From an uncultured bacterium (GTDB lineage: Bacteria; Eisenbacteria; RBG-16-71-46), in contig CAZIVR010000005.1 of the NCBI GenBank assembly GCA_964542745.1, forward strand, positions 9,142 through 73,141: 64,000 bases of DNA. Direction: 5' to 3'. Below are positions 33,982-62,716 of this stretch, one piece after another. The position numbers and the translations under genes were made by a program. Each line of letters starts with the position of its first letter. The stretch's first letter is position 1. Under the pieces are notes generated by a model. The model worked only from the letters and a program-made list of their open reading frames with translations, did no database searches and was not told the origin of the DNA.

Positions 33982-33994
33982 CGCCCCGTTCGCG

Positions 33995-36278: not shown

Positions 36279-36297
36279 TGCCTTACTACTCCCGGTC

Positions 36298-38485: not shown

Positions 38486-38970
38486 AGCTCGAGCCCCGCC
38501 ACGTGGTCCCGCCGCTCGCGGCCGCCCTCGTCTTCGCGCTCATCCTCACGCAGACCCGCGAGGCGCTGCAGCTCTCGGGCGCGTGGCGTCGGGCGAGTGC
38601 CGCGGCCGCGCGCGCCCCGAGCCCGTTCGCGGGCCTCGACGCGCTGCTCGCCGCGGTCCCCCCGCCGCGCGCCCCGCTCCCCCGCGACCCCTTCCGCAGC
38701 GGGAGCCCGGCGCCGCCCGTGGCCTCAGGGCCGGTCCGGCCCGCGCCGCCGCGCCGGCCCGCGCCGCCCCCGCAGCCGGTGCTGACCTCGATCGTCTTCG
38801 ACGCCGACCCGCGCGCCACCGTGCGCTGGAACGGCCGCGATTATTCCGTGAGGGCGGGAGCCCTCTTTGCCGATTTCCGAGTCACGAGCATCGCCCGGGA
38901 CCAGGTGGTCCTGGACCACGGGGGAGAAACCGTGGTCCTGCGCCTGCCCCAGAGAGGAGAAACCCCGTGA
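38482..38970 (+). CDS. pilP: PilP-like protein
   Basis: The GTG start overlaps the pilO stop. It has an N-terminal TM/lipoprotein-like segment, a Pro-rich linker and a C-terminal beta domain. Confidence 0.5.
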   Translation: MKLEPRHVVPPLAAALVFALILTQTREALQLSGAWRRASAAAARAPSPFAGLDALLAAVPPPRAPLPRDPFRSGSPAPPVASGPVRPAPPRRPAPPPQPVLTSIVFDADPRATVRWNGRDYSVRAGALFADFRVTSIARDQVVLDHGGETVVLRLPQRGETP

Positions 38971-40232: not shown

Positions 40233-40266
40233 GGCCGGCGCGGCCGGCCGGCGCCCGGGGGCGGCG

Positions 40267-40587
40267 TCAGATCCCGGGCACTCCGTGGACGGTGATCACG
40301 CCCGCGATCCAGCCCAGCCACTGCCCCACCGCGACGGTGATCGCGAGCGCCACGATCACGAGCCCGGCGCCCGCCAGCACCGGCGTGGTCGCCCGGTAGT
40401 GGTGCAGGCGCCAGATCAGGAAGGGAACGGCGAGACCCTTGAGCGCGACGAACACGAGCCAGTGGTGGTGGGCCAGCTCGGCGAGGAGCGGGTTGCCCTC
40501 GCGGTTGCCGAACAGGTGGATGCCGAACGTGGTGGCGAGGAGGTCGAAGCTGTTGGCGACGATGGCGACGAAGAGCAACGTGCGCAT
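40267..40587 (-). CDS. small integral membrane protein, unknown function
   Basis: It is 106 aa with 3-4 TM helices and is non-Arg-rich. It is convergent with pilQ and adjacent to pilD. Confidence 0.45.
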   Translation of the reverse strand: MRTLLFVAIVANSFDLLATTFGIHLFGNREGNPLLAELAHHHWLVFVALKGLAVPFLIWRLHHYRATTPVLAGAGLVIVALAITVAVGQWLGWIAGVITVHGVPGI

Positions 40588-40727
40588 GGAGCACCGGGAT
40601 CGGGTCGTGGGTGGTCGCGTTCTCGCGCCCGGAGCTTGCCAGAGCCCCTCGCGCCGGGCAACGAAATGTTGAGCGCGCCCGGCGTCGCGACGCCTCCCGC
40701 CGGTCCCGCGCCCGGCCCGGGGGCCCG

Positions 40728-41516
40728 GTGAGCCCGGCGGCCGCCTTCGCGATCCTCGCAGGCGTGCTCGGCCTGGTCGTCGGGAGCGCCGTCACGGCGA
40801 TCGCCTACCGCGTTCCGCGCGGCCTCTCGTGGATCGCGGGGCGCTCGGCCTGCCCGGCCTGCCGCACCACGCTCGGCCCGCTCGACCTGATCCCGGTGCT
40901 CTCCTTCCTCCTCGCGCGCGGGCGCTGCCGCCACTGCCACGCGGGCGTCGCCTGGCGCTACCCGCTCACCGAACTCTGGTGCGGGGCCTGGGGAGTGCTG
41001 GTCTTCCGGCTGGTGGGCGCCACCTGGCTGTGGCCGCCGCTCATGATCTGGGGCGCGCTGCTCGTGGCGCTGTTCTGGATCGACCTCGACGAGCAGCTCC
41101 TGCCCGACGTGCTCACGTTTCCCGGAACGCTGGTGGGTCTCGCCGTGGCGCTCCCCAACCTCGGCGCCCGCCACTCGCTGCTCGGCGTGGTCGCGGGGAG
41201 CGGCCTGCTGTGGCTGCTGGGCTGGATCTGGATCCGCTTCCGGAAGATCGAGGGCCTCGGGTTCGGCGACGTGAAGCTCGCGGCCATGTTCGGCGTGGTG
41301 CTGGGCTGGAAGCTCACGATCCTGACCCTGTTCCTCGCCGCCCTCGCGGGCACCGTGTGGGGCGGCATCCTCATGGCCCGTGGCCTCGGGAGCGGCAAGA
41401 CGCCTCTGCCCTTCGGCGTGCTCCTCGCCCCGGCGGCCATGGTCGCGCTCCTGTGGGGCGACGGCTGGCTGCTCGCCTACTCGAGGATGCTCGCGGGGCT
41501 GGCCGGGCCGGGCTAG
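40728..41516 (+). CDS. pilD: prepilin peptidase PilD (A24 family)
   Basis: It has a Zn-binding tetracysteine motif CPACR...CRHC, catalytic Asp-containing motifs (WIDLDEQLLPD; GFGDVKL) and multiple TM. GTG at 40728 is the likely start. Confidence 0.8.
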   Translation: MSPAAAFAILAGVLGLVVGSAVTAIAYRVPRGLSWIAGRSACPACRTTLGPLDLIPVLSFLLARGRCRHCHAGVAWRYPLTELWCGAWGVLVFRLVGATWLWPPLMIWGALLVALFWIDLDEQLLPDVLTFPGTLVGLAVALPNLGARHSLLGVVAGSGLLWLLGWIWIRFRKIEGLGFGDVKLAAMFGVVLGWKLTILTLFLAALAGTVWGGILMARGLGSGKTPLPFGVLLAPAAMVALLWGDGWLLAYSRMLAGLAGPG

Positions 41517-41717: not shown

Positions 41718-43163
41718 ATGGACGGACGGCTCACCCTCGGCGCGCTCCTGATCGCGCTGGTCGCATGGCTCGGGATCCTGCTCACGGCGTGGCCCACGTG
41801 GGAGGGCATGAACCACGCGACCGGGATCGTGGCCGCGTGCGCCGACGGCGCCCTCCACGGCGAAGCGCCCGGGTCGAACCGCGGCTCGGCGTTCCTCGGC
41901 ACCCCCTACTTCCCGCCGGTTCCCCTGCTGGTCGCCGCGGCCCGGAGCACCGGCATGTCGTGGCGCGCGGCGCTGCGCTGGGTGAACCTGTTCTCGATCC
42001 TGGCGCTGCTCGCGGCGGTCGCCCTGTGCGGCCAGGCGCTCGGGGGCGGCGGGGTCGCGCTCACCGTGTCGCTCGGCCTGCTGCTCGTGAGCTACCCGTT
42101 CGTGCGCGCGAGCCTCGCCGGGCGCGCCGACCCGCTCGCCGCCGCGCTGGCGATCGCGGCGCTCGCGGCGTGGTGCCAGGATCCGCGGCGCCGCGGCTGG
42201 TGGGCGCCGGCCCTCGCCGCGGCGTCGTGGCTGGTGAAGGCGACCTCCTTCACCGTCCCGCTCGCGGTGATGCTCTCGGCCTTCGCCCCGGGCGCGCGGC
42301 GCGGCGCCGGCCCGTTCGCCGCCCGCTTCTTCGCCGGCGTGGCGGCGGGCGTGGTGCTCACCATGCCGTGGCTCGGGCCCGGGTGGTACGGCGAGGTGCT
42401 GTACACGCTCGCCTTCTCGCCACCCAACACCGGGGTGCTCGCGCGCGGTCCCTTCGAGCTGCTGCGCTACCTCGCCAGCTTCGCCGAGCTCGCCATCGTG
42501 GCGGGGCTCGCCATCGTGTTCCTCACCGGGGAATGGTCGCGCGGCCGGCCGATCCGGCCCTTCGCGATCGCCTCGCTCGCCCTCGCGATGCTGGCCATGG
42601 TCAACCGCGGCTCCGACCACAACCACCTGCTGGAGCTGACCGCGCTCGGCGCGGTGGCGGCCGGGTTGTGGGCCGAGCACGCCACCCGCCGCGAGGCGGC
42701 GCTCGGGCTCGCCCTGATCCTGCTCGCGGTGGGCGGCGCCGCGTGGCGCGAGTCGCGCGCCGTGGGACGGGCCGCGCGCGCCCCGGAGGCGAAGCGGGGC
42801 GAGGTGCTCGCGGCGGTCCGCGCCGAGGGCGGGCTGGTGCTGTGCGAGGACCCGCTGATCGCCCTCGCGGCCGGCCGCCGCGCCGAGATCTCGGACGCCT
42901 CCACGCTGCGCTCGCGGCTCGCCCGGCGCGACCCGCGCGCCCGGGCGACCGTGGACCGGATCGAGGAGGGGCGCTACTCGCTGGTCGTGCTCAACGAGGA
43001 TCTCGACCGGGGCCGCGACCACTGGTACCGGGACTTCCAGTTCGGGGAGGCCGCGGCGGGAGCGATCGCGTCGCGCTACGTGAAGAGCGGCGTGCGCGAC
43101 GGCTACCACCTCTACCGGCCCGCCGCGCTCGCCGGACCGCCCGCCCCGGCCGCGACGCGCTGA
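41718..43163 (+). CDS. integral membrane protein (multi-TM; possibly glycosyltransferase-like / DUF2029-type)
   Basis: It is 481 aa with about 10 hydrophobic helices and a C-terminal soluble region. Confidence 0.55.
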   Translation: MDGRLTLGALLIALVAWLGILLTAWPTWEGMNHATGIVAACADGALHGEAPGSNRGSAFLGTPYFPPVPLLVAAARSTGMSWRAALRWVNLFSILALLAAVALCGQALGGGGVALTVSLGLLLVSYPFVRASLAGRADPLAAALAIAALAAWCQDPRRRGWWAPALAAASWLVKATSFTVPLAVMLSAFAPGARRGAGPFAARFFAGVAAGVVLTMPWLGPGWYGEVLYTLAFSPPNTGVLARGPFELLRYLASFAELAIVAGLAIVFLTGEWSRGRPIRPFAIASLALAMLAMVNRGSDHNHLLELTALGAVAAGLWAEHATRREAALGLALILLAVGGAAWRESRAVGRAARAPEAKRGEVLAAVRAEGGLVLCEDPLIALAAGRRAEISDASTLRSRLARRDPRARATVDRIEEGRYSLVVLNEDLDRGRDHWYRDFQFGEAAAGAIASRYVKSGVRDGYHLYRPAALAGPPAPAATR

Positions 43164-45540: not shown

Positions 45541-48500
45541 ATGCCCCCGGCCGCCCGCTCCCGCACCCCGCTCCTCGCGCTCGCGTCGCTCCTGCTCCTG
45601 GCCCCCGGCGCCGCGCTCGCGGGAGGTCCGATCACTTCCGGCTCGACGGTCGCCGGTTCGCTCTCCGGCCCCACGTTCCTCGAGTCGTGGACCTTCAGCG
45701 GGTCGGCCGGGCAGCGTGTGGTGATCGCCGCGGTCACCTCGGGCGGCGCGGTCAACACCAACGTCACGCTGCGCAATCCCGCGCTCGGGGTGACGTACAC
45801 GACCTCCCTCGACCGCTCCGAATTCCTGCTCGACGCGACCGGCACCTGGCGGATCGACGTCGAGGACGTGGGTCTCAACGACGCCGGCACCTACAACCTG
45901 ACGTTCCTCAACCTCACCGCCGGCCCGCTCACGTCGGGGGGCGACGCGGACGGCGGCCCCATCGTGTCCGGCGAGATCAAGACCGGTTCCAACGCCACGA
46001 CGTCCGACATGGACGCGTTCACCTTCACGGGGACGGCCGGGAATCGCGTGCTGGTCGGCGCCATCGCCACGGCGGGTGCTTCGTACAACACCACGCTCTA
46101 TCTCTACCCTCCCGGCGGAGGCGCCGCGGAAGCCTCGACGTTCGGCGACCGCCTCGACGTGGCGCTCGCCGCCACCGGCACCTACACGATTCTGGTCGAG
46201 GACCAGTCCAACGACCACACCGGCAGCTACTCGCTGGCGATGACGAACGTCACGGCCGGCCCCTACACGAGCGCCGGGGACGCCGACGGCGGCTCGCTCT
46301 CCTCGGCCGAAGTGCGGGCCGGACAGGCTCAGGCGGTGGGCGACTTCGACGTGTTCCGCTTCACCGGCGTGGTCGGACAGCGCGTGGTGATCGGCGCGCT
46401 CGCCACCGGCGGCGCGATGAACACCAACCTGTCGCTCTACCCGCCCGGCGGCGGGGCGGCGCTCTTCAGCAACTCCTCCGACCGGGCCGAGGCGCAGCTG
46501 ACCGCGTCCGGCACCTGGTCCATCGTCGTCGAGGACCTGGGCCAGGACGCGACCGGCAGCTACTCGGTTTCGTTCCTCAACCTCCAGGGCGGTCCCCACA
46601 CGTTCGGCGCCGATCAGGACTCCGCCGCGCTGGCCTCCAACCAGATCTTCTCGGGCACCATCGGCTCGGTCGTGGACTTCGACGCGTTCACGTTCTCGGG
46701 CACGGCCGGCCAGCGCGTGCTGTTCTCGGGCATCGCGACCGCGGGCGCCTCCTTCAACACCACGTTCTACCTCTACCCGCCCAACGGCGGTCCGCTGGAG
46801 ACCTCGACCTTCGGCGACAAGCTGGACCACCAGCTGCTCCAGAGCGGCACCTACACGGTCGTGCTCGAGGACCAGAACCTCGACCACACCGGGAGCTACA
46901 CCGTGTCCTACTACAACGTCACGGCCGGCCCCTTCACCTCGGTGGGCGATCCGGACGGAGGCGTCATCGGCTCCTCCGAGATCCGAAGCGGCGCGATCGG
47001 GTCGGTGGGCGACTTCGACGGGTTCCGGCTGAGCGCCTCCGTCGGGCAACGGCTGGTGATCGGCGCGCTGGCCACCAGCGGGGCGATCAACACCATGGTG
47101 TCCGTGTATCCCCCCTTCGGCGGGGCCGCGGTGGCCAGCTCCTCCTCCGATCGCGTGGAAGTGCAGGTCTCGGCCACGGGCCAGTGGACGATCGTGGTCG
47201 AAGACGGGGGACAGGACGCCACCGGCAACTACAGCTTCGGGTACGTCAACCTGCAGGCCGGGCCCCACGTCACGGCCGGCGACCCGGACGGCGGCGCGCT
47301 CGCCTCGGACGGGATCCGGAGCGCCTCGCATCAGGTGCCCCTCGACATGGACGTGTTCACGATCACCGGAAACGTCGGCGACCGCGTGGTGATCTCCGCC
47401 GTCTCCACGAGCGGGGCCCCTCACAACACGACGCTCTACGCCTACCCGCCCAACGGCGGAGGGCTCGAGGCCTCCACCTTCGCGGACCGGCTCGACTTCC
47501 AGCTCGCGCAGAGCGGGACCTACGCGATCCTGGTCGAGGACCAGAACTTCGACCACACCGGGAACTACGAGGTGACCGCCCTCAATCTCACGACGGGGCC
47601 CTACACGTCCTCGGACCCGGACGGGGGTCCGCTCGCCTCGGCCGAGATCCGGCCCGGCGGATTCCAGGCGGTCGGGGACCTCGACGCGTACCAGTTCACG
47701 GGCGCGCTCGGCCAGCGGGTGGTGATCGGCGCGGTCGCCGCGACGGGCGCCGTCAACACCAACGTCACGCTCTATCCGCCCGGGGGCGGCGCCGCGCTCG
47801 TGGCGACCTCCTCGGACCGCACCGAGTTCCAGCTCACCGCCACCGGAACCTGGACGATCCTCGTCGAAGACGTCGGCCAGGACGCCACCGGAACCTACAC
47901 GCTCGGCTTCATCAACCTGCAGGGGGGGCCGCTCTCCACCCTCGCCGACCCCGACGGCGGCACGGTCGCCTCGGGCGGGTTCGGCTCGGGCACGACCGGC
48001 GGCCCCGTGGACTTCGACGCCTTCACGATCTCGGGCAACGCCGGGGACCGGGTGGTGGTGACCGCCCTGGCGACCGCGCCCTCGCCCTACAACACGACCG
48101 TCTACGCCTACCCGCCGAACGGGGGCCTGACCGAGGCCAGCACCTTCGCCGACCGGCTCGACTTCCAGCTCCTCCAGAGCGGCACCTACACGATCCTGGT
48201 CGAGGATCAGAACCTGGACCACGCCGGCAGTTACGTCGTGTCGTACCAGAACCTCACCGCAGGCCCCGACGCCACGGTGTCGGATCCGGACGGCGGCGTG
48301 CTCGCGTCCGCGGAGATCCTGTCGGGGCAGATCCAGGCCAAGGGCGACATGGACGTGTACCGCTTCACGGGCTCGACGTCGCAGCGCGTCGTCATCGGGG
48401 CGGTCGCGACGAGCGGGGCCCTCAACACCAACGTCACGCTCTACCCGCCGGGGAACGGCGCGGCGGTCGTCTCCACGTCGGCCGATCGCTTCGAATTCCA

Positions 48501-49584
48501 GCTCACCCACACCGGAACCTGGACGCTGGTCGTGGACGACGTGGGGCAGGACACCACCGGAAGCTACCGGGTGACGCTCATGAACCTGCAGGCCGGCCCG
48601 TTCACGACCGGCCTCGACGGCGACGGCGGCGCGCTCGACTCGAACGTGCCGCGCAGCGGCACGGTCTCGGAGATCGCCGATCTCGAGGCCTACCGCTTTT
48701 TCGGCACCGCGGGCGACCGGGTGGTGGTCGCGGCGGTGGCGTCGGCGGCGCCCCCCTTCAACACGACCCTGTACCTCTACCCGCCCAGCGGGGCGGCCGC
48801 GGAGGCCAGCACGCTCGCCGACCGCATGGACGCGCAACTGCTGCTGACCGGCTTCCACACGCTGCTGGTCGAGGACCAGAACCTGGATCACACCGGCGGC
48901 TACACGGTGTCCATGGTGAACCTGAAGGCGGGCCCGCTCGTCACCGCCGCGGATCCCGACGGCGGTCAGGTGGGCGCGGGCGCGTTCCGCGCCGGGACGA
49001 TCTCGGGCCGCGCCGATTTCGACGCCTACGTGTTCTACGCCGTCCCCGGCGACACCGCGAGGATCACGGCGGTGACGACCTCGGGCACGCTCAACACCGA
49101 GATCGTGCTGTACGCCCCCTTGGTGGCGGGGCCCGTCGTGTTCACCTCGCTCGACAACGTCACCTATCCGGTCACCGGGGCGGGCTATCACGTCGTCGTG
49201 ATCGAGGACGTCGGGCTCGACGACTCGGGCGGATACAACTTTTCCCTCGCCGGCCCGCTCAGCGTCGTGGACGCGCCGTACGCCGGCCCCGCGCTCCTCG
49301 ATCCCTCGCGGGTGGTGATGGCGGCGGCGAGCCCCAACCCCTCGGCCGGCCCTTCGGCCCTCACGTTCTCGCTCCCGGCGAGGACGACGGCCTCCCTCCG
49401 CCTGTACGATGTCCGCGGCGCGCTGGTGCGGGAACTCCAGGACGGCCCGCTGGAAGCGGGCATCCACCGGCGCGCCTGGGACGGACGCGCCGCCGACGGC
49501 GCCCCGGCCGGGCCCGGCGTCTACTTCGCCGAATTGCGGACACCCGGGGAAATCCTGCGGCAAAAGCTGGTGCGGCTGCGCTGA
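45541..49584 (+). CDS. giant secreted repeat protein: 11 tandem ~110-aa beta-sandwich (PPC/pre-peptidase-C-terminal-like) repeats in alternating A/B subtypes plus FlgD-Ig/T9SS-type C-terminal sorting domain
   Basis: It has a signal peptide MPPAARSRTPLLALASLLLLAPGAALA. Type A repeats carry ...GDxDxFxFTGxxGQRVVIGAxATxGAxNTNVxLYPPGGGAAxxSxSSDRxEFQLTAxGTWxIxVEDxGQDATGxYxxxFxNLQxGP. Type B repeats carry ...YNTTLYxYPPNGGxLEASTFxDRLDFQLxQSGTYTILVEDQNxDHTGxY. The CTD is PNPSAGPSALTFSLPARTTASLRLYDVRGALVREL...GVYFAELRT. Confidence 0.8.
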   Translation: MPPAARSRTPLLALASLLLLAPGAALAGGPITSGSTVAGSLSGPTFLESWTFSGSAGQRVVIAAVTSGGAVNTNVTLRNPALGVTYTTSLDRSEFLLDATGTWRIDVEDVGLNDAGTYNLTFLNLTAGPLTSGGDADGGPIVSGEIKTGSNATTSDMDAFTFTGTAGNRVLVGAIATAGASYNTTLYLYPPGGGAAEASTFGDRLDVALAATGTYTILVEDQSNDHTGSYSLAMTNVTAGPYTSAGDADGGSLSSAEVRAGQAQAVGDFDVFRFTGVVGQRVVIGALATGGAMNTNLSLYPPGGGAALFSNSSDRAEAQLTASGTWSIVVEDLGQDATGSYSVSFLNLQGGPHTFGADQDSAALASNQIFSGTIGSVVDFDAFTFSGTAGQRVLFSGIATAGASFNTTFYLYPPNGGPLETSTFGDKLDHQLLQSGTYTVVLEDQNLDHTGSYTVSYYNVTAGPFTSVGDPDGGVIGSSEIRSGAIGSVGDFDGFRLSASVGQRLVIGALATSGAINTMVSVYPPFGGAAVASSSSDRVEVQVSATGQWTIVVEDGGQDATGNYSFGYVNLQAGPHVTAGDPDGGALASDGIRSASHQVPLDMDVFTITGNVGDRVVISAVSTSGAPHNTTLYAYPPNGGGLEASTFADRLDFQLAQSGTYAILVEDQNFDHTGNYEVTALNLTTGPYTSSDPDGGPLASAEIRPGGFQAVGDLDAYQFTGALGQRVVIGAVAATGAVNTNVTLYPPGGGAALVATSSDRTEFQLTATGTWTILVEDVGQDATGTYTLGFINLQGGPLSTLADPDGGTVASGGFGSGTTGGPVDFDAFTISGNAGDRVVVTALATAPSPYNTTVYAYPPNGGLTEASTFADRLDFQLLQSGTYTILVEDQNLDHAGSYVVSYQNLTAGPDATVSDPDGGVLASAEILSGQIQAKGDMDVYRFTGSTSQRVVIGAVATSGALNTNVTLYPPGNGAAVVSTSADRFEFQLTHTGTWTLVVDDVGQDTTGSYRVTLMNLQAGPFTTGLDGDGGALDSNVPRSGTVSEIADLEAYRFFGTAGDRVVVAAVASAAPPFNTTLYLYPPSGAAAEASTLADRMDAQLLLTGFHTLLVEDQNLDHTGGYTVSMVNLKAGPLVTAADPDGGQVGAGAFRAGTISGRADFDAYVFYAVPGDTARITAVTTSGTLNTEIVLYAPLVAGPVVFTSLDNVTYPVTGAGYHVVVIEDVGLDDSGGYNFSLAGPLSVVDAPYAGPALLDPSRVVMAAASPNPSAGPSALTFSLPARTTASLRLYDVRGALVRELQDGPLEAGIHRRAWDGRAADGAPAGPGVYFAELRTPGEILRQKLVRLR
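45625..49270. repeat. ~330-nt coding tandem repeats (about 11 copies) with a ~660-nt two-subtype super-period
   Basis: The repeat structure is evident at the protein level. It generates long spurious ORFs in the other frames (45687..49964 +, 45208..49563 -). Confidence 0.75.
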
Positions 49585-53146: not shown

Positions 53147-54412
53147 ATGCGCGTCCTGCTCGTCACGTTCGGTTCCCACGGCGACCTGTTCCCGTTCCTC
53201 GCGATCGGGCGCGCGCTGGCCCGGCGCGGGCACGCGTGCCGGGTCGCCGCCCATCCGCACTTCACCCGCGACATCGAGACCGCCGGTCTCGAGCCGGAGC
53301 CGGTGATCGCGCGCGTTCCGGTCGGGTACCTGCTTCGCCACCCCGAGCTGTTCCATCGCACGCGCGGACCGCTGCTCGGGATGCGGCACTTCCCCGCGCT
53401 GCTCCGCGAGTTCGCCACCGACGTGAGGCGGCTCGCCGCGACGCGGCCCTTTGACGCCATGGTCTGCCACTACGGGGCGATCTCGGCCCGCTGGGTCGCG
53501 GAGGATGCCGGGGTTCCGTGCGCCTCGTGCGCGCTCACCCCCATGGCGTGGCACTCGGCCCACGACGAGGTGCCCGCCTACCAGTCGGCGCCGGGCCGCG
53601 GCCGGGCCGCCGCCGCGCGCCGGTTCGCCCGCCTCGCGGATCCAGCGCTGCGGCTGGCGTTCGGCGCCTGGGTCCGGAGCCTGCGGCGCGCGTGCGGCGT
53701 CCCGCCCCCGAGGCGCGGCCCGCGCGCCGCGTGGCCCTCGGTGTGGGACGAGTTCCGGGCCGGCGACCTCGCCCTCGGCCTGTGGCCCGAGGCGTTCCGC
53801 CCCGGGCTCCCGGATGATCCGCCGGATTCACGGCGCTGCGGTTTCACCCGCTACGCCCCGCCCGGCGAAGCGCCCGACCCGCGGCTCGAGGCGTTCCTCG
53901 CGGGCGGGGACCCGCCGGTCGCCTTCACGCTCGGGAGCGCCGCGGTCCACCACCCGCGCGGGTTCTTCGCGCTCGCGGCCGCCGCCTGCCGCCGCCTCGG
54001 CGTGCGCGGCGTGCTGCTCACGGGCCGGGGCAACCCTCCGCCCACGGGGCTGCCGGGGACCGTGCTCGCGGTGGACTGGGCCACGCACGCCACGCTCTTT
54101 CCGCGGGCGGCGGCCGTCGTCCACCACGCGGGGATCGGCACCACCGCCGAGGCCCTGGCAGCGGGCCGCCCGTCGCTCGCGGTCCCGCACGCCTTCGACC
54201 AGTTCAACAACGCGCTCCGGGTCGAGCGGCTGGGCGCGGGGCTGCAGGTCCCGCGCCATCGCCTGGACGCCCGCCGCCTCGAAGCCGCGCTCGAGCGCGT
54301 GGTGCGCGATCCGGCGCTCGCGGCGCGCGCGGCGGCGCTGGCGCCGCGCATGGCCGCGGACGGCGCCGGACCCGCGGCGGACGCCGTGCTGGAGTGGAAC
54401 CGTCGAGGGTAG
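53147..54412 (+). CDS. glycosyltransferase family 1 (UDP-glycosyltransferase/MGT-type, GT-B fold)
   Basis: The N-terminus is MRVLLVTFGSHGDLFPFLAIGRAL and the C-terminus has HHAGIGTTAEALAAGRP, the UDPGT signature region. Confidence 0.8.
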   Translation: MRVLLVTFGSHGDLFPFLAIGRALARRGHACRVAAHPHFTRDIETAGLEPEPVIARVPVGYLLRHPELFHRTRGPLLGMRHFPALLREFATDVRRLAATRPFDAMVCHYGAISARWVAEDAGVPCASCALTPMAWHSAHDEVPAYQSAPGRGRAAAARRFARLADPALRLAFGAWVRSLRRACGVPPPRRGPRAAWPSVWDEFRAGDLALGLWPEAFRPGLPDDPPDSRRCGFTRYAPPGEAPDPRLEAFLAGGDPPVAFTLGSAAVHHPRGFFALAAAACRRLGVRGVLLTGRGNPPPTGLPGTVLAVDWATHATLFPRAAAVVHHAGIGTTAEALAAGRPSLAVPHAFDQFNNALRVERLGAGLQVPRHRLDARRLEAALERVVRDPALAARAAALAPRMAADGAGPAADAVLEWNRRG

Positions 54413-54418
54413 CGTCAG

Positions 54419-54436
54419 GCGCCGGAATTCCGGCGG
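54419..54436. terminator. perfect palindrome CGCCGGAATTCCGGCG in convergent intergenic region
   Basis: It is a 16-nt perfect inverted repeat located 7 nt after the GT1 stop. Confidence 0.4.
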
Positions 54437-54471
54437 GCGCGGCCAGTCCGGACGACGACCGCTCACGGCAC

Positions 54472-54507
54472 GGGCCGCGGGCGGAATCCGATTCCGCCGC
54501 GGCCCGT
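54472..54507. terminator. long GC hairpin (GGGCCGCGGGCGGAATC/GATTCCGCCGCGGCCC) between convergent genes
   Basis: It is a ~16-bp stem with a one-base bulge. It sits between the GT1 gene and the stop of the minus-strand triple-repeat gene and is probably a bidirectional terminator. Confidence 0.45.
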
Positions 54508-54559
54508 CCGTAACCCATCGCGGGACCGGACCGTCCCCGGCCCCGCGGCGATCCGCCCG

Positions 54560-56335
54560 CTAATCCCTGGCGACGACGGCGCTCCGCCGGCGGCGGTGGA
54601 GCATTCCCAGCCCGGCGAGCGCCATGGCCAGTGACACCAGCGCGATCGCGCGCGGGTCGGCCCCCGGAGCCTTGCGAACGTCGGGCCCGTTCACCAGCTC
54701 GACGCAGATGTCGTCGATCGTGCCCCACGACACCTCTGCCCCGTCGTTGATCGAGGAGGTGTTCTCCGGGTTGATGCAGAGATAGTCCCGATTGGCCGTC
54801 GTCGGCGACCACAGGATCTCGTCGCTGACACAGGTGAGCGACGATGTGTACTGGGTGAACCCGATGGTTTCGCCGCCGCTGAGGGCCGGCGGATAGGTGG
54901 ATCCGGGGTCGCCGCTATGGGCGGTGAGACGGAACCGCACCTGGTGGGTGGGCGCCGGGCCCGGATTGAGGTGCTTGTAGAGCACCTTGATCCTGTAGGT
55001 GCGCCCCTGGAGGAACGGCGCGCCCAGCTTCTGCTTGATGGACTCGCCCACCACCTGGTTGCCCCACATCTGCACCGCGCCCCCGGAGGTCGCGCAGCCG
55101 GTGTTCACCACCTGCGGCGTCGCGGTCAGCGCCGACCAGCTCCCCACCGACGCCGTCGGCATCGAGCCGTAGACGACGTTGTCCTCGAAGTCGCCGTTCG
55201 AAACGAACCCGCACGGCAGCTCCTCGACGCACAGGTCGTCCACCGTTCCCCACGACACCTGCGAGCCGTCGTTGATCGAGGAGGTGTTCTCCGGGTTGAT
55301 CGTGATGTAGGCGGCGTCGTTCTCAGCCGTCCACAGGATCCGGTCGCTCACGCAGGTGAGGGACGAGGTGTACTGGGTGAAACCGATGAGTTCGTTGGAG
55401 GAGAGAGGCGGGTAGGTGGATCCGGGATCCGCCGACGAGGCGGTCAGCCGGAAGCGCACCTGATCCTGCGGCGCGGCGCCCGGGTTCAGGTGCTTGTAGT
55501 GCACCGTGATCCGGTAGGTCCTGCCCTTCTTGAAGCCCTCGGAGAGCTGCTGCTTGATGGCCTCGCCCACCACCTGGTTGCCCCACATCTGCACGGCGCC
55601 CGCGGGGGTCGCGCAACCGGTGTTCACGACCTGGGGCGACGCGGAGATCGCGCTCCAGTTCGCCACCGAGGCCGCGGGCATCGAACCGTACACCACGCCA
55701 TCCTCGAAGTCGGCGTTCGCGAGGAAGCCGCAGCGCACCTCGGAGATGCAGATGTCGTCGATGGTGCCCCACGAGACCTGGGCCCCGTCGTTGATCGACG
55801 ACGAGTTTTCGGGATTGACCGTCAGGTAGTCCCCGCTCGCGGTCGCCGTCCAGTCCACCGTGTAGGTGACGCAGGTGAGCGAAGAGGTCGGGGGCGTCAC
55901 GCAGATCTGCGTGTAACCCGCCACCGGCGGGTAGCTCGCCGGATCGGACGCGGAGAGCGCGAGACGGAAGGCCACCTGGTGCTGCGGGGAGGGGCCGGGG
56001 TTCAGGTGCTTGTAGCGCACCGTCACCCGGTACTTCTTGCCTTGCACGATCGGGGTCGCCAGCCGCTGCTTGACGGACTCCCCGACCACGAGGTTGCCCC
56101 ACATCTGCATGGCGCCGGCGGGCGTGGCGCAGCCGGTGCTCACCACCTGCGGAGTCTGGGTCAGGACCGACCAGCCCCCGACCGAGGCCGTGGGCATCGA
56201 GCCGTAGACCAGCCCGTAGGCGAAGTCGCCGTTGTTGACCACGTTGCCTGAACAGAAGGCGCGGGCGTCTTGGGGGAGAACGACCAACACGATGAGTACG
56301 AGAAGCGCACGGCAAACCTGGGTGGACGCTTTCAT
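54560..56335 (-). CDS. secreted Cys-rich protein with three tandem ~170-aa CBM4_9-like (NGDFE...W) repeats and a C-terminal hydrophobic anchor followed by RRRR (PEP-CTERM-like variant tail)
   Basis: It has a signal peptide MKASTQVCRALLVLIVLVVLPQDARA. Each repeat is NGDFE(D/Y)G(V/L)VYGSMP..W....PQVV.TGCAT..GA.QMWGN.VVGE.IKQ.L......G..YR..V.YKHLNPG......V.FRL....DP...YPP.........TQY.SSLTCV.D...W.......Y..INPEN.SSINDG..VSWGT.DD.C. The tail is GADPRAIALVSLAMALAGLGMLHRRRRS. Confidence 0.75.
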   Translation of the reverse strand: MKASTQVCRALLVLIVLVVLPQDARAFCSGNVVNNGDFAYGLVYGSMPTASVGGWSVLTQTPQVVSTGCATPAGAMQMWGNLVVGESVKQRLATPIVQGKKYRVTVRYKHLNPGPSPQHQVAFRLALSASDPASYPPVAGYTQICVTPPTSSLTCVTYTVDWTATASGDYLTVNPENSSSINDGAQVSWGTIDDICISEVRCGFLANADFEDGVVYGSMPAASVANWSAISASPQVVNTGCATPAGAVQMWGNQVVGEAIKQQLSEGFKKGRTYRITVHYKHLNPGAAPQDQVRFRLTASSADPGSTYPPLSSNELIGFTQYTSSLTCVSDRILWTAENDAAYITINPENTSSINDGSQVSWGTVDDLCVEELPCGFVSNGDFEDNVVYGSMPTASVGSWSALTATPQVVNTGCATSGGAVQMWGNQVVGESIKQKLGAPFLQGRTYRIKVLYKHLNPGPAPTHQVRFRLTAHSGDPGSTYPPALSGGETIGFTQYTSSLTCVSDEILWSPTTANRDYLCINPENTSSINDGAEVSWGTIDDICVELVNGPDVRKAPGADPRAIALVSLAMALAGLGMLHRRRRSAVVARD

Positions 56336-56785
56336 GGTTGCGACTCCAATCGCGGTTCAGCAACGTGGCGCGCACCCGCGCGGATGGCGGCCCGCGGGGC
56401 TGCACGTGGGATTCCGCCCCGGCAACAGGGCGGTGTCGACCGCAACGGAACGCGCTGCCGTCCCGGGGCGGCTTCGGCGAACTCGGGGGATTGGACTGGC
56501 GCTAGCGGGGGCCCGGCAGCGGGCAAAGCGCTGGGAAACCGTCGCCCTGACGCGAGGCATTCCCATGGTTCGGTGGGAGCGGCCACCATGGAGGCGCCAT
56601 CTGGAATTCTCGCCGGTGCGACGCGGGGAATTCCAACATATGAGCCGTGCTATGCCAAGAAGAAAATTGGATGGGGAACGGCCGTCGCATGAAAAGGGCG
56701 GCGCTGCCCCGGGCGCTCTCGGGGCCCGGGCAGCGCCGCGTGCCGCCCGTCGGGGCGACTCCCGTCGAAAGCCGTCCGGGCTTCG

Positions 56786-59700
56786 CTATTTCTCCAGCGT
56801 GTCCCCGTCGAACACCTCGCCGTTCTTCACCACCCACCGCACCGTGTTGGTGTTGCGGATGTCCTCGAGCGGGTTGGCGTCGAGCACCACGAAGTCGGCG
56901 AGCTTGCCCGGCTCGATCGAGCCGATCGCGTGGTCCATGCCCAGGTACCAGGCGCCGTTCCACGTGGCGCACTTGATCGCGTCGGCGGGGCGCATGCCGC
57001 CCTGCGCCAGCGCCCAGATCTCCCAGTGGGCGCCGAGACCCTGCCGCTGGCCGTGGGCGCCGATCTGCACGCTGCCCCCGGCCTCCACGATCTGCCGGCA
57101 CCCGGCCGCGACGTCCTTGTGGTGCCAGTCCCACTCCGGAGCCATCACGGGGCGCCGGATCGCGCGCGCCGCGAGGTACTTCTCGGGCGTGAAGCGCCGC
57201 AGCTTGGGATCGTCGAACACGTTCGCGTGCTGGTAGAACCAGTGCTCGCCCGAGAGCCCGCCGTAGGCGACCAGCAGCGTCGGCGTGTAGCCCGAGCGGC
57301 TCTTGGAGAACAGCTCCACCACGTCGCGGTAGATCGGCGTGATCGGGAGCGCGTGCTCGAGCCCGGTGTGGCCGTCCATGACGAAGCCGAGGTTCTCCTC
57401 GAACTTTCCGCCGCCTTCGGGCACCACCAGCATGGACTCCTCGCGCGCGGCCTGCAGGATCCACTGGCGCTGCTCGCGGCGCGGCTGCATGTAGCTCTTC
57501 ACGCTGATCGCGCCGAGCCGCTTCATGCGCCGCATGTGGTGGCGGGCCTCGTCGAGGTTGGCCATCGGCGTGGCGTCCCGCCCGCCCGCGCCGTAGAGGA
57601 TGTTGCCGGTGGAGTAGACGCGGGGCCCGCGCAGCGCCCCCGTCTCCACCATCTCGCCCTCGGTGAACACCTCCCACGAGGTCGCGGAGGGGTCGTGCAT
57701 CGTCGTGACGCCGTAGGCGAGGTTGGCGTCGTAGGACCAGAACCGCTCCGGGATCACTCCGACGCTCGCGTAGTGGGCGTGCGCGTGCGCGTCCACGAGC
57801 CCGGGGATGACGGTCTTGCCGCGCGCGTCCACGGTGCGCGCCCCCGCGGGCACGGCGGTCGAAGCCCGCGGGCCCACCGCCACGATGCGGTTGTCCTTCA
57901 CCACCACGGTGGCGTCCTCGAGGGTCTCGTTGGCGTTGCCGCCGCGCATCGTGATCACGCGGGCGCCGGTGAACGCCACGGTCCCCCGCGGGCGCGCGCG
58001 CGGCACCTCGAGCGAGATCCAGATCGAGTCGGGCCGGGGCGCGGCCACCGCGTCCGCCTTCTTGCCGCCCTTCGCGTCGTCCTTCGCGGCGGCCGTGGCC
58101 GAGTCCGCGCCTGCCCCCTTGCCGGAGCTGTCGGCCCCGGCGGCGCCCTTCGCGGCGTCCTTCTTCGCCTTGGGCTTGCCGGCTTCGACCAGCTGGCGCT
58201 CCCAGTAGGCGGTCAGGCTGTCGAGCGAGAGGCTGCGGAACAGCGGTCCCGAGCTCCAGGTGATGGCGCGACCGCCGCGGCCCCACTGGAGCCAGTCGCC
58301 GCTGTCCTCCGAGAGCTTGCGCGCGGGCAGCGCGCCGTCGGGTCCGAGGTCCACCGGGTCGCGGCCGCTCTTCGGCAGCTCCGACACGTAGGCCGCGTAC
58401 TTCACGCGGTAGGCGAGCCAGCGGTCGTCGGGCGAGGGCATGAAGTCCTCGCCGTTGGTGACGGTGGCGTGGGCGATGCGGTCGGTGCCGTCGAGCCGCA
58501 CCGAGACCAGGGAGTTCTTCTGCGCGGACCCGGTCGGGTCCTCGCCGTACTCCACGAAGTAGAGCCGGTCCCCGGCGGCGTTCCACGCCGGGCGCGGCAT
58601 CCCCGACGCATCGAACTGCGCCTCGAGCGTGGTGACGGTGCGCGCCTCGCCCCCGCCCGCGGGCATCCACTGGAGCTCGAACCAGATCTCGTCGTTCAGG
58701 TCGGACGTGCCGCGCAGCCCCGCCCCGCTCCCCTTGAGGAACGCGAGCTTGGAGCCGTCGCGGCTCCACGCCGGGTTCAGGTACTGCGAGGGCACGCGCG
58801 TGAGCCGGGTGGCGGAGCCGCCGTTCGCGGGCATGCGCGCGACGTGGCCGCCCTCGCCATCCTTCCACGTCACGAACGCGATCGAGCGCCCGTCGGGGGA
58901 CCAGGCCGGCGCGAAGGCGCGCTGGCCTTCGGGCGTGAGCGCCCGGGCCGACTTCGAGGCGATCTCGTAGCGCCAGATCCGGCCGAGCGCCGAGAACACG
59001 ATGGACTTGCCGTCCGGCGACGAGGCCGGCCACGCCAACTGCCGCACGGTGACGCGGTCGGCGTCGAGCGTCTGGCGGAAGCGCACCGCGTGGGTGACGA
59101 CCTGCTCGACGGAGGCGGTGAACGGAATCCGCGTGGCCGTGCCGGTCGCAACGTCCACGCGGGAGAAGCCGCCCGCCGCGTAGATGACGATGGACTTCCC
59201 GTCCGGCGTCCACGCGTACGCGGGGTAGACGCCGGTCCACGCGAAGCCCTCCATGTTGTCGAAGGAGAGCCCGTCCCACAGCGGCCGCGCGCGGCCGGTC
59301 TCGAGGTCCTGCAGGAACAGCACGGTCTTCTCGCGCACGCGGCGGACGAACGACATCGTCTTGCCGTCGGGTGAAAAGGCCGCGCGTCCGGCGCCGCCCG
59401 CGCCCTCGGTGACGGTGACGATCTTGCCGGTCACGCGGTCGAAGCGGCGGATCTGCCAGATCCCGGCGTGCACGTTGCGGTCGTACTGGAAGCGCTGCGG
59501 GCGGCCGGTGAAGTAGACGTGGCGCCCGTCCCGCGAGAACACCGGCTCGTTGGCGTCCCCCCACTCGGCCTTCTTGGTGACCTGGACGCCCTTGCCGCCG
59601 AGCACGCTGTACATCCACAGCTCGACCGTGCCGAGCGAGCTCTGGTCGGTGAGACGGCGCCGCACCGTGATCCAGCGACCGTCGGGCGACCACGCCGGCG

Positions 59701-60223
59701 AGTTGCTGAAGCGGTCCGCCTCCTGCGTGACCGGACGCGGGTCGCTGCCGTCGGCGTTCATCATCCACGCGTTCTCGGTGCCGCCGCGGTCGCTCGTGAA
59801 GGCGATCCGCTTCCCGTCCGGCGACCAGCGCGCCTGCATGTCGTAGCCCATCCCGGACGTGAGCCGGGTGGCGCGGCCGCCGGTGACCGGCATCGTGTAG
59901 AGGTCGCCGAGCAGGTCGAACAGCAGCGTGCGGCCGTCGGGCGACACGTCCACCGTCATCCAGGTTCCCTCGCGGGTCTCGAACCGCAGCGTGTCGTGCG
60001 GGGCGTGGGGCACGGTGACGTCCCACGGGTCGCCGGACTTGGGCTTCTCGGCCGGCGCCTCCGCCGAGGGCGTGACGTCGGGGGCATCGTGCCCCGGGTG
60101 GGTGTCGGCATGCGACGCGAACACCGCGCCGGCGGGCCGGTCGGCGCGCGCGGGGGCCGCCGCGCACAGGATCGCGGCCGCCGCGAGGGCGGGCAGAAGG
60201 CGAACGATGGACCTGGGAGACAT
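56786..60223 (-). CDS. periplasmic TolB-like beta-propeller (PD40 repeats) fused to amidohydrolase-family metal-dependent hydrolase
   Basis: It has a signal peptide MSPRSIVRLLPALAAAAILCAAAPARA, multiple SPDG(K/R) WD40-like PD40 repeats, a Lys/Ala/Gly-rich linker and a C-terminal amidohydrolase (PGLVDAHAHAH ... metal ligands). It is 1145 aa. Confidence 0.85.
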   Translation of the reverse strand: MSPRSIVRLLPALAAAAILCAAAPARADRPAGAVFASHADTHPGHDAPDVTPSAEAPAEKPKSGDPWDVTVPHAPHDTLRFETREGTWMTVDVSPDGRTLLFDLLGDLYTMPVTGGRATRLTSGMGYDMQARWSPDGKRIAFTSDRGGTENAWMMNADGSDPRPVTQEADRFSNSPAWSPDGRWITVRRRLTDQSSLGTVELWMYSVLGGKGVQVTKKAEWGDANEPVFSRDGRHVYFTGRPQRFQYDRNVHAGIWQIRRFDRVTGKIVTVTEGAGGAGRAAFSPDGKTMSFVRRVREKTVLFLQDLETGRARPLWDGLSFDNMEGFAWTGVYPAYAWTPDGKSIVIYAAGGFSRVDVATGTATRIPFTASVEQVVTHAVRFRQTLDADRVTVRQLAWPASSPDGKSIVFSALGRIWRYEIASKSARALTPEGQRAFAPAWSPDGRSIAFVTWKDGEGGHVARMPANGGSATRLTRVPSQYLNPAWSRDGSKLAFLKGSGAGLRGTSDLNDEIWFELQWMPAGGGEARTVTTLEAQFDASGMPRPAWNAAGDRLYFVEYGEDPTGSAQKNSLVSVRLDGTDRIAHATVTNGEDFMPSPDDRWLAYRVKYAAYVSELPKSGRDPVDLGPDGALPARKLSEDSGDWLQWGRGGRAITWSSGPLFRSLSLDSLTAYWERQLVEAGKPKAKKDAAKGAAGADSSGKGAGADSATAAAKDDAKGGKKADAVAAPRPDSIWISLEVPRARPRGTVAFTGARVITMRGGNANETLEDATVVVKDNRIVAVGPRASTAVPAGARTVDARGKTVIPGLVDAHAHAHYASVGVIPERFWSYDANLAYGVTTMHDPSATSWEVFTEGEMVETGALRGPRVYSTGNILYGAGGRDATPMANLDEARHHMRRMKRLGAISVKSYMQPRREQRQWILQAAREESMLVVPEGGGKFEENLGFVMDGHTGLEHALPITPIYRDVVELFSKSRSGYTPTLLVAYGGLSGEHWFYQHANVFDDPKLRRFTPEKYLAARAIRRPVMAPEWDWHHKDVAAGCRQIVEAGGSVQIGAHGQRQGLGAHWEIWALAQGGMRPADAIKCATWNGAWYLGMDHAIGSIEPGKLADFVVLDANPLEDIRNTNTVRWVVKNGEVFDGDTLEK

Positions 60224-60418
60224 GGAAGGGGTTCTCCGCGTTGGGAAGCCGGCGCGCGGTCGAGGCGCGGAACGGGAACGCGAGAAGCTATTCCGCCGGC
60301 CCCTTCGCGGCAAGGGCGGCGCGCCGCTCCGCGACCGGCGCCGGAGCGCCGGGCGACGAGCGCGGCGGACGCCCGGACCGGGAGCGCCGCCGCGGCACGC
60401 CGATCCATCCCGCGTCCG

Positions 60419-62716
60419 GTGCTAGACTCGTCCCCGTCCCGGAGCCCCGCTCCCCATCTCTCTCGCCGCTCCACCCGGGAGTCGCCCCTGCGCCTCACGC
60501 CCCGCATCCGCCCGCGCGCCCTGCCCCCCGCTTCGTGGCTCCTCGCCGCGGCGTGCGCGATGGCCGCGTTCCCGCAAGCCGCCACGGCCGGACCGGTGGA
60601 GGACTCGGGCTTCGAGCGCCGCCTCGAGTCGGTCTCGCGCACCGGCGTCGTCCATGACCGCGTGCTGCCGCTCGCGCGGCTCGAGCGTCTGGACGGATCC
60701 GAGGGCGCCCCGGCGATCGGGCCCGCGACGTGGCGACAGGCGGTGGACGAGCTGCGGCGCGCCTCGTTCCGCGCCGCGGGCGCGCCGGACCCGGACGCGA
60801 TCGCCCGCGCGGCGCGCGCGGTGCGGGACCGGGGCGCCGTGCCCCTCGCGATCCTCGACCTCGCCTACGAGCGCCTCGCCGACGGCTCCGCGCCCGGGCC
60901 GGGCGAGGCGGCCGGTCCCGGCGCGATGCCCGCGCTGGTCGAATCGCGCGCCTTCGCGGCCGCCGCGCTGGCCGGCCCGACGCACCGCGGCGCCGGCGTG
61001 ACCTTCCTCCTCGAGCGGGCGCTCTACGTCGGCGATCCCCCGCGGGGCCCGCGCGCGATCGAGGTGGACTTCGGCGACGGGCTCGGCTTCCGCCGGGTCC
61101 GCTTCGGCGAGCCGGTGGCCGCGGGCTACGCGACCACGGGCCCGCGCACGCTGGCCGCGCGCGTCACGCGCGACGACGGCACGGTGGCGGTCTCGCGCTT
61201 CGCCTTCGAGGTGGCGGGACTCGCGACGCCCTCGCCCGACGACACGCTCGCGATCACCGCGTCGACCGCGTGGCAGGGCCAGTTCGGCACCGGGCGGGCG
61301 TTCGTCTACCGGGCGCCCGGCCGGACGCAGATCGAAAATCCCGTGGTGGTGGTCGAGGGCTTCGACCTCGACAACAGCATGGGCTGGGACGAGCTCTACG
61401 CGCTCCTCAACCGCGAAAACCTCCTCGAGACCCTGCGCGCCGACGGCTTCGACGCGGTGGTGCTCGACTTCACCGACGCCACCGAGCCGGTGCAGAAGAA
61501 CGGCCTGGTGGTGGCGGAACTGATCCAGCAGGTGCAGGCCACGATCGCGCCGCAGGCCAACCTCGCGGTGGTCGGGGCGAGCATGGGCGGCCTGTGCTCG
61601 CGCTACGCGCTGCTGTGGCTCGAGGCCAACGCCCCGCCGCACCGCGTGCGCGCCTGGCTCTCGTTCGACGCCCCGCACGCGGGCGCCGACATCCCGCTCG
61701 GGCTCCAGTACTGGATCCGCTTCTTCGCGAGCCAGTCGGCCGACGCCGCCGCGTTCCTCGCGATCCTCGACCGGCCCGCCGCCCGGCAGATGCTCGTCTA
61801 CCACTACACGAACCCGCCGGGCGCGACCGGCGCGCCGGACCCGATGCGGGCCGCGATGCTCTCCGACTTCGCGGCGCTGGGCGACTGGCCCGCGCTCCCG
61901 CGGCGGCTCGCGGTCGCCAACGGCAGCGGCGCCCGGGTCAACCAGGGGTTCGCGCCCGCCGCCCCGGTGATCCGCTGGAACTACACCTCGCTGTTCGTGG
62001 ACATCACCGGCAACGTGTGGGCGCTCCCCGACGCCGTCTCCGACACGATCTTCGCGGGGCGCACGCGCATCCTCTTCACGACCACCACCCAGACCGTGAT
62101 CGTTTCCGGCACGCGTCCGTGGGACGGGGCCCCGGGCGGGTGGCGCGCCTCGTTCGCCGAGCTCGACGCGCTCACCGCCCCCTACGGCGACATCGTGGCG
62201 CTCCACCCCCACCACTGCTTCGTGCCGAGCGTGAGCGCGCTCGCGCTCGCGACGCCGGATCCCTTCTTCGACATCGCCGGGGCTCCCGACCTGCTCGCGC
62301 TCACGCCCTTCGACGCGGTCTTCTACCCGGCCTCGAACGAGGAGCACGTGTTCCTCACGGCGGCGAGCGCGGCCTGGATCCGGAGTGAGATCGAAAGCGG
62401 CGTGGTGTCGGTGGCGCCACGCGCCGCACGCGGCGGCGGTGCCGGGCTCGCGCTCGCGGCGGGACCGCATCCGTTCTCCGGCTCGCTGGAGCTGGCGTTC
62501 GACCTGCCGCGCGCGGAAACCGTGACGCTGGAGATCTTCTCGGTGGACGGGCGGGCGGTGCGCCGGCTCGCGCGCGGGGCTTTCGAGGCGGGCCCCCACC
62601 GGCTCATGTGGGACGGCCGGGACGGTTCGGGAACTCCGGTTCCCGCAGGGCTTTACTTCGCGAGGCTTACCGCGGGCTCGAAGTCGGTCACGGCGCGCGC
62701 GGCGCGGCTCCGTTAG
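60419..62716 (+). CDS. secreted alpha/beta-hydrolase (lipase/esterase-like, GASMGG nucleophile motif) with C-terminal FlgD-Ig/T9SS-type sorting domain; start uncertain
   Basis: It has LAVVGASMGGLCSRYAL (GxSxG). The CTD is GPHPFSGSLELAFDLPRAETVTLEIFSVDGRAVRRLARGAFEAGPHRLMWDGRDGSGTPVPAGLYFARL. The putative signal region is SWLLAAACAMAAFPQAATA. The GTG at 60419 gives a long n-region. Confidence 0.55.
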   Translation: MLDSSPSRSPAPHLSRRSTRESPLRLTPRIRPRALPPASWLLAAACAMAAFPQAATAGPVEDSGFERRLESVSRTGVVHDRVLPLARLERLDGSEGAPAIGPATWRQAVDELRRASFRAAGAPDPDAIARAARAVRDRGAVPLAILDLAYERLADGSAPGPGEAAGPGAMPALVESRAFAAAALAGPTHRGAGVTFLLERALYVGDPPRGPRAIEVDFGDGLGFRRVRFGEPVAAGYATTGPRTLAARVTRDDGTVAVSRFAFEVAGLATPSPDDTLAITASTAWQGQFGTGRAFVYRAPGRTQIENPVVVVEGFDLDNSMGWDELYALLNRENLLETLRADGFDAVVLDFTDATEPVQKNGLVVAELIQQVQATIAPQANLAVVGASMGGLCSRYALLWLEANAPPHRVRAWLSFDAPHAGADIPLGLQYWIRFFASQSADAAAFLAILDRPAARQMLVYHYTNPPGATGAPDPMRAAMLSDFAALGDWPALPRRLAVANGSGARVNQGFAPAAPVIRWNYTSLFVDITGNVWALPDAVSDTIFAGRTRILFTTTTQTVIVSGTRPWDGAPGGWRASFAELDALTAPYGDIVALHPHHCFVPSVSALALATPDPFFDIAGAPDLLALTPFDAVFYPASNEEHVFLTAASAAWIRSEIESGVVSVAPRAARGGGAGLALAAGPHPFSGSLELAFDLPRAETVTLEIFSVDGRAVRRLARGAFEAGPHRLMWDGRDGSGTPVPAGLYFARLTAGSKSVTARAARLR

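Follow-up and report, generated by a model that had tools for sequence, protein, structure and literature searches.

The target gene and its product

The window analyzed here is a 64,000-nucleotide (64-kb) stretch of contig CAZIVR010000005.1 from an uncultured bacterium. The YebC protein encoded in the window shares 82–85% identity with proteins assigned by name to Eiseniibacteriota or Candidatus Eisenbacteria. The gene under study, called the target below, encodes a protein that runs, in translation, from a signal peptide through three modules resembling carbohydrate-binding modules (CBMs) to a linker, a transmembrane helix and a basic cluster (Table 1). The original prediction likened the C-terminal tail to a PEP-CTERM sorting signal and kept a plain C-terminal membrane anchor as its fallback. 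Of these two readings of the tail, the fallback is the better supported.

The target open reading frame (ORF) is taken to be real because its GC contents at the third and second codon positions (GC3, 0.92; GC2, 0.51) are the coding signature of a genome of ~74% GC. In gene calling across the window, a GC3 above 0.9 together with a GC1 greater than GC2 marks genuine genes. The overall GC content of the target is 67%, versus ~74% for the window. This lower value is a matter of amino-acid composition, and foreign codon usage is excluded. Horizontal transfer, as judged by base composition, was rejected, since the low GC stems from codon positions 1 and 2 and GC3 is genome-like. A protein identical to the target, P0001, is found in an NCBI-derived collection, encoded on a contig of 76,121 bp; its cluster has one NCBI member.

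At its 3′ end the target faces a convergent GT1 glycosyltransferase gene (53147–54412, plus strand) across a gap of 147 bp. The gap contains a GC-rich hairpin that is possibly a bidirectional terminator; it has no T-run, and so the consensus terminator scan made no call. A second hairpin lies in the upstream intergenic region. Because the two hairpins bracket it, the target looks like its own transcription unit. Scans of bp 54300–56900 gave no sigma-70-like promoter and no Rfam match, and the terminator scan of the same stretch was also unhelpful. A frameshift, or a hidden domain, was considered and rejected: the convergent gene ends just 147 bp beyond the stop codon, and no other frame of the tail region looks coding.

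Table 1. Features of the target gene and its flanks, with positions in the window
Feature	Position	Strand	Description	Basis
Target coding sequence	54560..56335	minus	complete, 591 aa, ATG start	ORF listing and translation
Signal peptide	56258..56335	minus	Sec-type, aa 1–26, MKASTQVCR / ALLVLIVLVVL / PQDARA, then F	n-, h- and c-regions and AxA rule
Module 1	55730..56254	minus	CBM-like β-jelly roll, aa 28–202; Cys 28, 69, 155, 196 and extra Cys 145	internal alignment, hidden Markov model (HMM) domain parsing
Module 2	55214..55732	minus	aa 202–374; Cys 202, 241, 328, 369; bears the sub-threshold Pfam CBM_4_9 match (aa 207–303)	alignment, HMM parsing, Pfam scan
Module 3	54686..55213	minus	aa 375–550; Cys 375, 414, 502, 544 and extra Cys 520; modelled	alignment, AlphaFold2, fold matches
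Linker	54650..54685	minus	PDVRKAPGADPR, aa 551–562; contains the DPR that the original prediction likened to PEP	sequence
Hydrophobic helix	54599..54649	minus	AIALVSLAMALAGLGML, aa 563–579; predicted membrane span	hydropathy scan
C-terminal end	54560..54598	minus	HRRRRSAVVARD, aa 580–591 and stop codon; predicted cytoplasmic, positive-inside stop-transfer cluster	sequence
Hairpin	54470..54507	.	GC-rich, 11-bp perfect arms; within the 147-bp gap between GT1 gene and target	inverted-repeat search
Upstream intergenic region	56336..56785	minus	450 bp; holds hairpin 56698–56739 just past the PD40/amidohydrolase gene	

The signal peptide was assigned by reading the sequence by rule, and its cleavage is predicted to follow ARA. 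Cys8 lies inside the signal peptide. A lipoprotein reading was rejected because Phe directly precedes Cys28, so that no lipobox is present. The window encodes a type IV pilus secretin and a MacB-type pump with a membrane-fusion protein, which indicates that the cell is diderm.

The three modules

Three tandem modules of the kind originally predicted are present, but they are not near-identical, as pairwise identities are 59–76% in protein and 68–77% in DNA. Their opening motif is N[GA]DF[AE].[GN].VYGSMP.ASV..W. The predicted NGDFE opening does not hold for every module: module 1 reads NGDFA and module 2 reads NADFE. In all triple-module proteins examined, the modules within each protein are closer to one another than to modules of other proteins. 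Those of the target are at most 60% identical to modules elsewhere, versus 59–73% within the protein. This within-protein likeness points to lineage-specific duplication or homogenization.

A homologue search with the target returned 57 relatives, the closest non-identical one being 50% identical and having a different ending. Among GTDB-representative genomes the best match is 53% identical. When an HMM of the three modules was run on the relatives, a discrete unit of ~175 aa emerged, present in 1, 2 or 3 copies per protein. In an alignment of 55 module sequences (A1), residues N6, W26, G51, Y73, N151, D167 and C170 are invariant, and the motifs QMWGNxVVGES, NPEN and VSWGxIDDxC are conserved. 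When 1.84 billion proteins were searched exhaustively with the A1 profile by HMMER, 495 cluster representatives matched at E ≤ 0.001.

The relation to Pfam CBM_4_9 (PF02018) is borderline. The target scores 25.5 bits (E 1.9e-5) in a single stretch in module 2, and the gathering threshold is 25.9 bits; a newer-model precomputed annotation of the identical protein does include PF02018. Only 7 of the 55 family modules match CBM_4_9 at E ≤ 0.01, and an NCBIfam scan of the target gave no family match for the module domain. By these scores the module is a borderline, remote relative of CBM_4_9. Sequence searches of the PDB found no match to the target protein and nothing significant with the A1 profile, the best hit being the CBM70 module 4d0q at E = 0.27.

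The fold itself is secure. An AlphaFold2 model of module 3, made with alignment A1, is a very confident β-sandwich (pLDDT 95.6, pTM 0.91). When the module model was compared with the PDB by Foldseek, CBM70, CBM22, CBM16 and CBM4 took the top ranks; sequence identity to these leading structures is 9–18%. By its likeness in three dimensions to solved CBMs, the module belongs to the CBM-type β-jelly-roll fold, which is galactose-binding-domain-like. The full-length model is weak (pLDDT 68.9, below 50 in the tail); it displays three separate β modules and a short helix at residues 561–570. Taken together, the results make the module a remote relative, without a curated model of its own, of the CBM4/9/16/22 jelly-roll group. 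Carbohydrate binding is its presumed function. No catalytic glycoside-hydrolase domain was found in the target or its close homologues.

The target module shares with CBM4/CBM9, CBM16, CBM22 and CBM70 an N-terminal strand of the N-G-D-F-E type, a C-terminal D-D strand, tandem repetition and an exported multi-domain setting. It differs from them in its own motifs, given above, and in its two putative disulfides, and most members of its family fail to match Pfam CBM_4_9. The family, with its ~495 cluster representatives, extends over four phyla, consists mostly of cargo of the type IX secretion system (T9SS) type and has no curated model. Once its ligand is known, it could reasonably be put forward for an entry of its own in Pfam or among the CAZy CBMs.

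Each target module has four aligned cysteines, and extra ones occur at residues 145 and 520. The original proposal of four conserved cysteines forming two disulfides is supported by conservation and by the behavior of the pairing partners. In A1 numbering, C1 is 96% conserved, C170 100% and C40 89%. C1 lies in the opening segment of the module and C170 in its final one, and a C1–C170 disulfide most plausibly closes it. The partner of C40 is C78 in 40 of the 55 modules and C128 in exactly five, namely the three target modules, P0018 and P0020. C78 and C128 never occur together in one module. This mutual exclusivity is good indirect evidence for a second disulfide whose partner has moved, putatively C40–C128 in the target modules. 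The alternation between C40–C78 and C40–C128 looks like disulfide migration within one fold.

The C-terminal tail

After module 3 the order of elements is PDVRKAPGADPR, AIALVSLAMALAGLGML, HRRRR and SAVVARD, so that HRRRR stands seven residues before the end. The C-terminus quoted in the original prediction was correct in its letters, but the protein continues for six more residues, to the end of HRRRRSAVVARD. The best 15-mer of the helix has a mean Kyte-Doolittle value of 2.22. The tail codons have a GC3 of 0.88, and of all 270 ORFs that reach 100 aa or more in the six frames of the window (91,829 residues), the target alone has the helix-plus-basic-cluster ending. It follows that GC-rich composition does not explain the tail.

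Tripartite sorting signals consist of a signature motif, a helix and a C-terminal Arg cluster; a genome holds several copies of them, along with a membrane enzyme dedicated to them (Haft 2006, PMC1569441; Haft 2023, 10.1101/2023.06.07.544157). Such multiplicity within a genome is part of their definition, and single matches to models of such signals are usually judged false positives (Haft 2006, PMC1569441; Haft 2023, 10.1101/2023.06.07.544157). In PEP-CTERM proteins the hydrophobic stretch is ~14 residues long and Cys makes up ~0.4% of residues (Haft 2006, PMC1569441).

The target has the signal peptide, the helix and the basic cluster near the C-terminus of a PEP-CTERM protein, but in place of Pro-Glu-Pro before the helix it reads GADPR. 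The cut-offs of the models used are 16 bits for TIGR02595, 20.7 bits for PF07589, 20 for MYXO-CTERM (TIGR03901) and 23.5 for NPXTG. At E ≤ 10, neither PF07589 nor TIGR02595 matched the full-length target or its tail taken alone. As a positive control, a protein ending in RPVPEPGSFLLLGAGVGAAALARRRRKAA (L001:4927-5718, minus strand), from a Candidatus Eisenbacteria metagenome-assembled genome (MAG), passed both models, with 24–29 bits for TIGR02595 and 30–33 bits for PF07589. Grafting VPEP in place of ADPR in the target tail raised no score above its cut-off (14.6 and 15.8 bits for TIGR02595 and PF07589). The target further departs from PEP-CTERM proteins in its 17-residue hydrophobic stretch and its Cys content of 2.5%.

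Of the sorting-signal models, MYXO-CTERM scores best on the tail, with 15.8 bits, below the cut-off; the match covers model positions 11–33, that is, the helix and RRRR only. The unrelated PEP-CTERM control scores an equal 15.8 bits on this model, and thus the target's match is generic. This likeness to the Cys-type tripartite signals cut by myxosortases is set against several differences: residues 551–591 contain no Cys, so the obligatory, invariant MYXO-CTERM Cys is absent; the first 10 model positions are unmatched; and the host belongs to Eisenbacteria rather than Myxococcota. No LPXTG-like or Gly-Gly signature precedes the helix, the sole match being a sub-threshold one to NPXTG (13.9 bits) over the helix and basic part. 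The linker PDVRKAPGADPR matched no HMM of any sorting signature. A Pfam scan found no C-terminal β-sandwich sorting domain (PF18962, PF13860) in the target.

Sibling tails and sorting enzymes were sought in the 64-kb window and in ~200 kb of related sequence. Of the 53 coding-like ORF ends examined in the window, one, that of the target, has such a tail; PEP-CTERM tails have a median of 8 per genome. Among ~250 ORF ends in related loci none is similar, and only the PEP-CTERM control and two unrelated membrane-protein ends were noted. Likewise, ~100 kb of contig sequence around YebC in close Eisenbacteria relatives holds no similar tail. Among 5.8 billion proteins, a word-index search, which informs on near-copies only, found none of the 47-aa tail (one candidate, nothing at E ≤ 10). 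No exosortase-, rhombosortase- or CPBP-like family was seen among 39 window proteins scanned with Pfam or NCBIfam. The checks that the original prediction had proposed, for exosortase-type genes and for sibling tails, thus found neither in the window, and no sibling tail in the related loci. Its PEP-CTERM analogy is superficial: a generic helix and Arg cluster on a signal-peptide protein is indeed present, but the signature and the HMM match are not.

Endings of the homologues

Helix-plus-basic endings are confined to 1 of 187 family members, the target alone, in a set that includes the best 150 representatives. Where the ending of a family member is recognizable, it is a T9SS Por_Secre_tail, a FlgD_ig-like or other β C-terminal domain, a dockerin or a WGxLKxxYR motif. 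The T9SS/FlgD_ig-tailed homologues come from Eisenbacteria, Planctomycetota, Acidobacteriota and Saprospiraceae (for example, P0005, P0008 and L001:8861-11884). Their modules are 44–52% identical to those of the target, often stand in triple tandem behind a signal peptide and immediately precede the C-terminal element. They differ from the target in ending with a β-sandwich export/sorting domain of 80–130 aa or a dockerin, where the target has a single membrane helix, and in the commoner C40–C78 pair, where the target has the rarer C40–C128.

Several of these endings merit description. In the Candidatus Eisenbacteria MAG JADJQY010000001.1 (L001), the PEP-CTERM protein used as the control is encoded 3 kb from a homologue of 1007 aa (L001:8861-11884) that combines FG-GAP, three modules and FlgD_ig. 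At least some Eisenbacteria thus probably have an exosortase system; no exosortase gene was seen in the 20-kb L001 locus. In single-module homologues from Eisenbacteria-like MAGs (L005:9896-10570, L006:3-575, L008:9809-10585, P0019 and P0024) the module is followed directly by (T/S)SWG(T/S)LK(A/S)RY(R) at or near the C-terminus. This motif resembles a short C-terminal tag; L008 runs five residues further. The Planctomycetota homologues P0002, P0004, P0007, P0013–P0015, P0022, P0025, P0026, P0030, L002, L004 and L007 have in common a β-rich C-terminal domain of ~125 aa that ends SNG(V/I/L)EL.LG. It has no precomputed Pfam match and may be an undescribed export/anchor domain. The distant members P0057, P0128, P0152 and P0174 end in dockerin-like repeats, GDVNCDGIVDVGDVVYLINYLYK, which indicates that the module is also used in cellulosome-like assemblies.

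Interpretation of the tail

We favor, with a probability of about 0.55, a model in which the target is an envelope protein of bitopic (type I) topology in a diderm member of the Eisenbacteria group. The signal peptide would bring the chain through Sec and then be cleaved. The three β-jelly-roll modules would form in the periplasm, each closed by the C1–C170 disulfide between its first and last strands and braced by C40–C128. The 17-residue C-terminal helix would stop transfer and serve as the anchor, HRRRR would remain in the cytoplasm, and the tail would presumably undergo no further processing. Tethered by the ~12-residue linker to the outer face of the inner membrane, the modules would most likely bind a glycan or another envelope polymer. 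As a protein of CBM-like repeats held in the membrane by its C-terminus, the target would be of a known kind and fairly ordinary. If this model is correct, its value is modest and lies in a well-defined, confidently folded CBM-like module family and in the swap of C-terminal export/anchor devices within one family.

Several points weigh against the membrane-anchor model. A C-terminal membrane helix is absent from all 186 other members of the family, and the recognizable endings, at the position of the tail, are export or display elements. This pattern, a choice of anchor within one family, hints at a possible sorting role for the tail as well. The family modules are otherwise displayed at the surface, so that a periplasm-facing placement is odd. 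In layout the tail looks fully tripartite, with a short polar motif ahead of a helix and Arg residues clustered near the C-terminus, and PEP-CTERM is present in the phylum. Finally, only 64 kb of the genome was searched, and hence the absence of sibling tails and of a sorting enzyme is weak evidence.

The main competitor, which we regard as possible though clearly behind the membrane anchor, takes the tail as a member of an undescribed or divergent class of tripartite sorting signals with a signature of approximately G-A-D-P-R. A dedicated multi-pass membrane enzyme, with its gene elsewhere in the genome, would cleave it after Sec, and the protein would be moved to the outer surface, the signal replacing the T9SS-type domain of the homologues. 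The tripartite layout with an N-terminal signal peptide, the position of the tail where the family has its export/display elements, the surface or secreted nature of the rest of the family and the evidence that the tail is no compositional accident all fit this proposal. New classes of such signals keep turning up (Haft 2023, 10.1101/2023.06.07.544157). It is opposed by the lack of a second tail in the window, the related loci, the 187 family members and the 5.8-billion-protein word search, and by the lack of a candidate enzyme in the window. Singleton tails, moreover, are usually false positives (Haft 2023, 10.1101/2023.06.07.544157). No orthologue is known in which DPR might recur: the closest homologue, at 50% identity, has another ending, and the corresponding slot in the closest relative with a long contig (L041) holds other genes. 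The narrower proposal, that GADPR-helix-RRRR is the first member of an undescribed Eisenbacteria tripartite signal cut by an intramembrane enzyme, replacing the T9SS/FlgD_ig export domain on a surface glycan-binding protein, is more doubtful. Should the tail prove to be a sorting signal, a new sorting enzyme would be implied in a poorly known candidate phylum.

It is unlikely that the ending is an evolutionary or assembly accident, in which a FlgD_ig/T9SS-type domain was lost by deletion, recombination or MAG chimerism and an unrelated helix-coding 3′ end was gained, leaving a mislocalized or decaying product. Such an origin would suit a lineage-specific gene in a variable slot, where L041 has proteins of 212 aa and 912 aa (M10/FlgD_ig) instead; a gene for which no orthologue is known; and a window whose other exported proteins use FlgD_ig ends. 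The reading frame, however, is intact, the tail GC3 is like that of the rest of the gene with no better alternative frame, all three modules retain the family's invariant residues and cysteines, and the hairpin and the convergent gene follow cleanly after the stop codon.

Least credible of all is a degenerate yet functional PEP-CTERM signal handled by an ordinary exosortase: the genuine PEP-CTERM protein so near a target homologue in L001, and the helix and RRRR, which resemble the back half of PEP-CTERM and alone draw weak, sub-threshold matches to PEP-CTERM family models, speak for it, but the near-invariant Pro-Glu-Pro is missing, PF07589 and TIGR02595 fail where the control passes and even after the VPEP graft, the hydrophobic stretch and Cys content are discrepant, and no exosortase is encoded in the window.

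Genome context

The neighbors of the target are the convergent GT1 glycosyltransferase, an S10 carboxypeptidase, a PMT_2-like membrane protein and a PD40/amidohydrolase protein; no functional link between them and the target was seen. The neighborhood is kept in L041, the closest relative with a long contig, whose YebC is 89% identical. There, the slot between the S10 peptidase and the PD40/amidohydrolase gene (L041:2288-6232) contains a 212-aa protein, a 912-aa M10/GEVED/FlgD_ig protein and two small ORFs. In the target genome the same slot (53147–56335) contains GT1 and the target. Thus the target is lineage-specific and lies in a variable slot.

FlgD_ig-type ends are present on exported proteins encoded at 45541–49584 (plus), 59996–62716 (plus) and 26651–27661 (minus), and a domain of this type is apparently what the organism ordinarily uses as its C-terminal export tag. 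The protein encoded at 4945–7662 (plus) has the FlgD_ig-type end pattern GVYFxxL...VRLR and no Pfam match. Between 59996 and 60223, the PD40/amidohydrolase gene (minus, start near 60223) overlaps the divergent FlgD_ig gene (plus, start 59996) by ~230 bp; at least one of the two start codons is probably mis-set.

A cluster resembling type IV pilus and type II secretion systems extends from 29250 to 41516 and encodes PilT-like and PilB-like ATPases, PilC, a pilin, PilM, the secretin, a DUF5658 protein and a prepilin peptidase. The interval between the pilin and PilM holds three further genes without an assigned family, and that between PilM and the secretin holds four genes, three small ones without an assigned family and 38482–38970. 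The secretin-to-peptidase part of the cluster is also found in L041 and L043–L045, and the PilM end in L041 and L045. Beside the prepilin peptidase, a hydrophobic-looking protein of ~480 aa that belongs to no Pfam or NCBIfam family is encoded at 41718–43163 (plus) and in L041 (L041:13920-15356).

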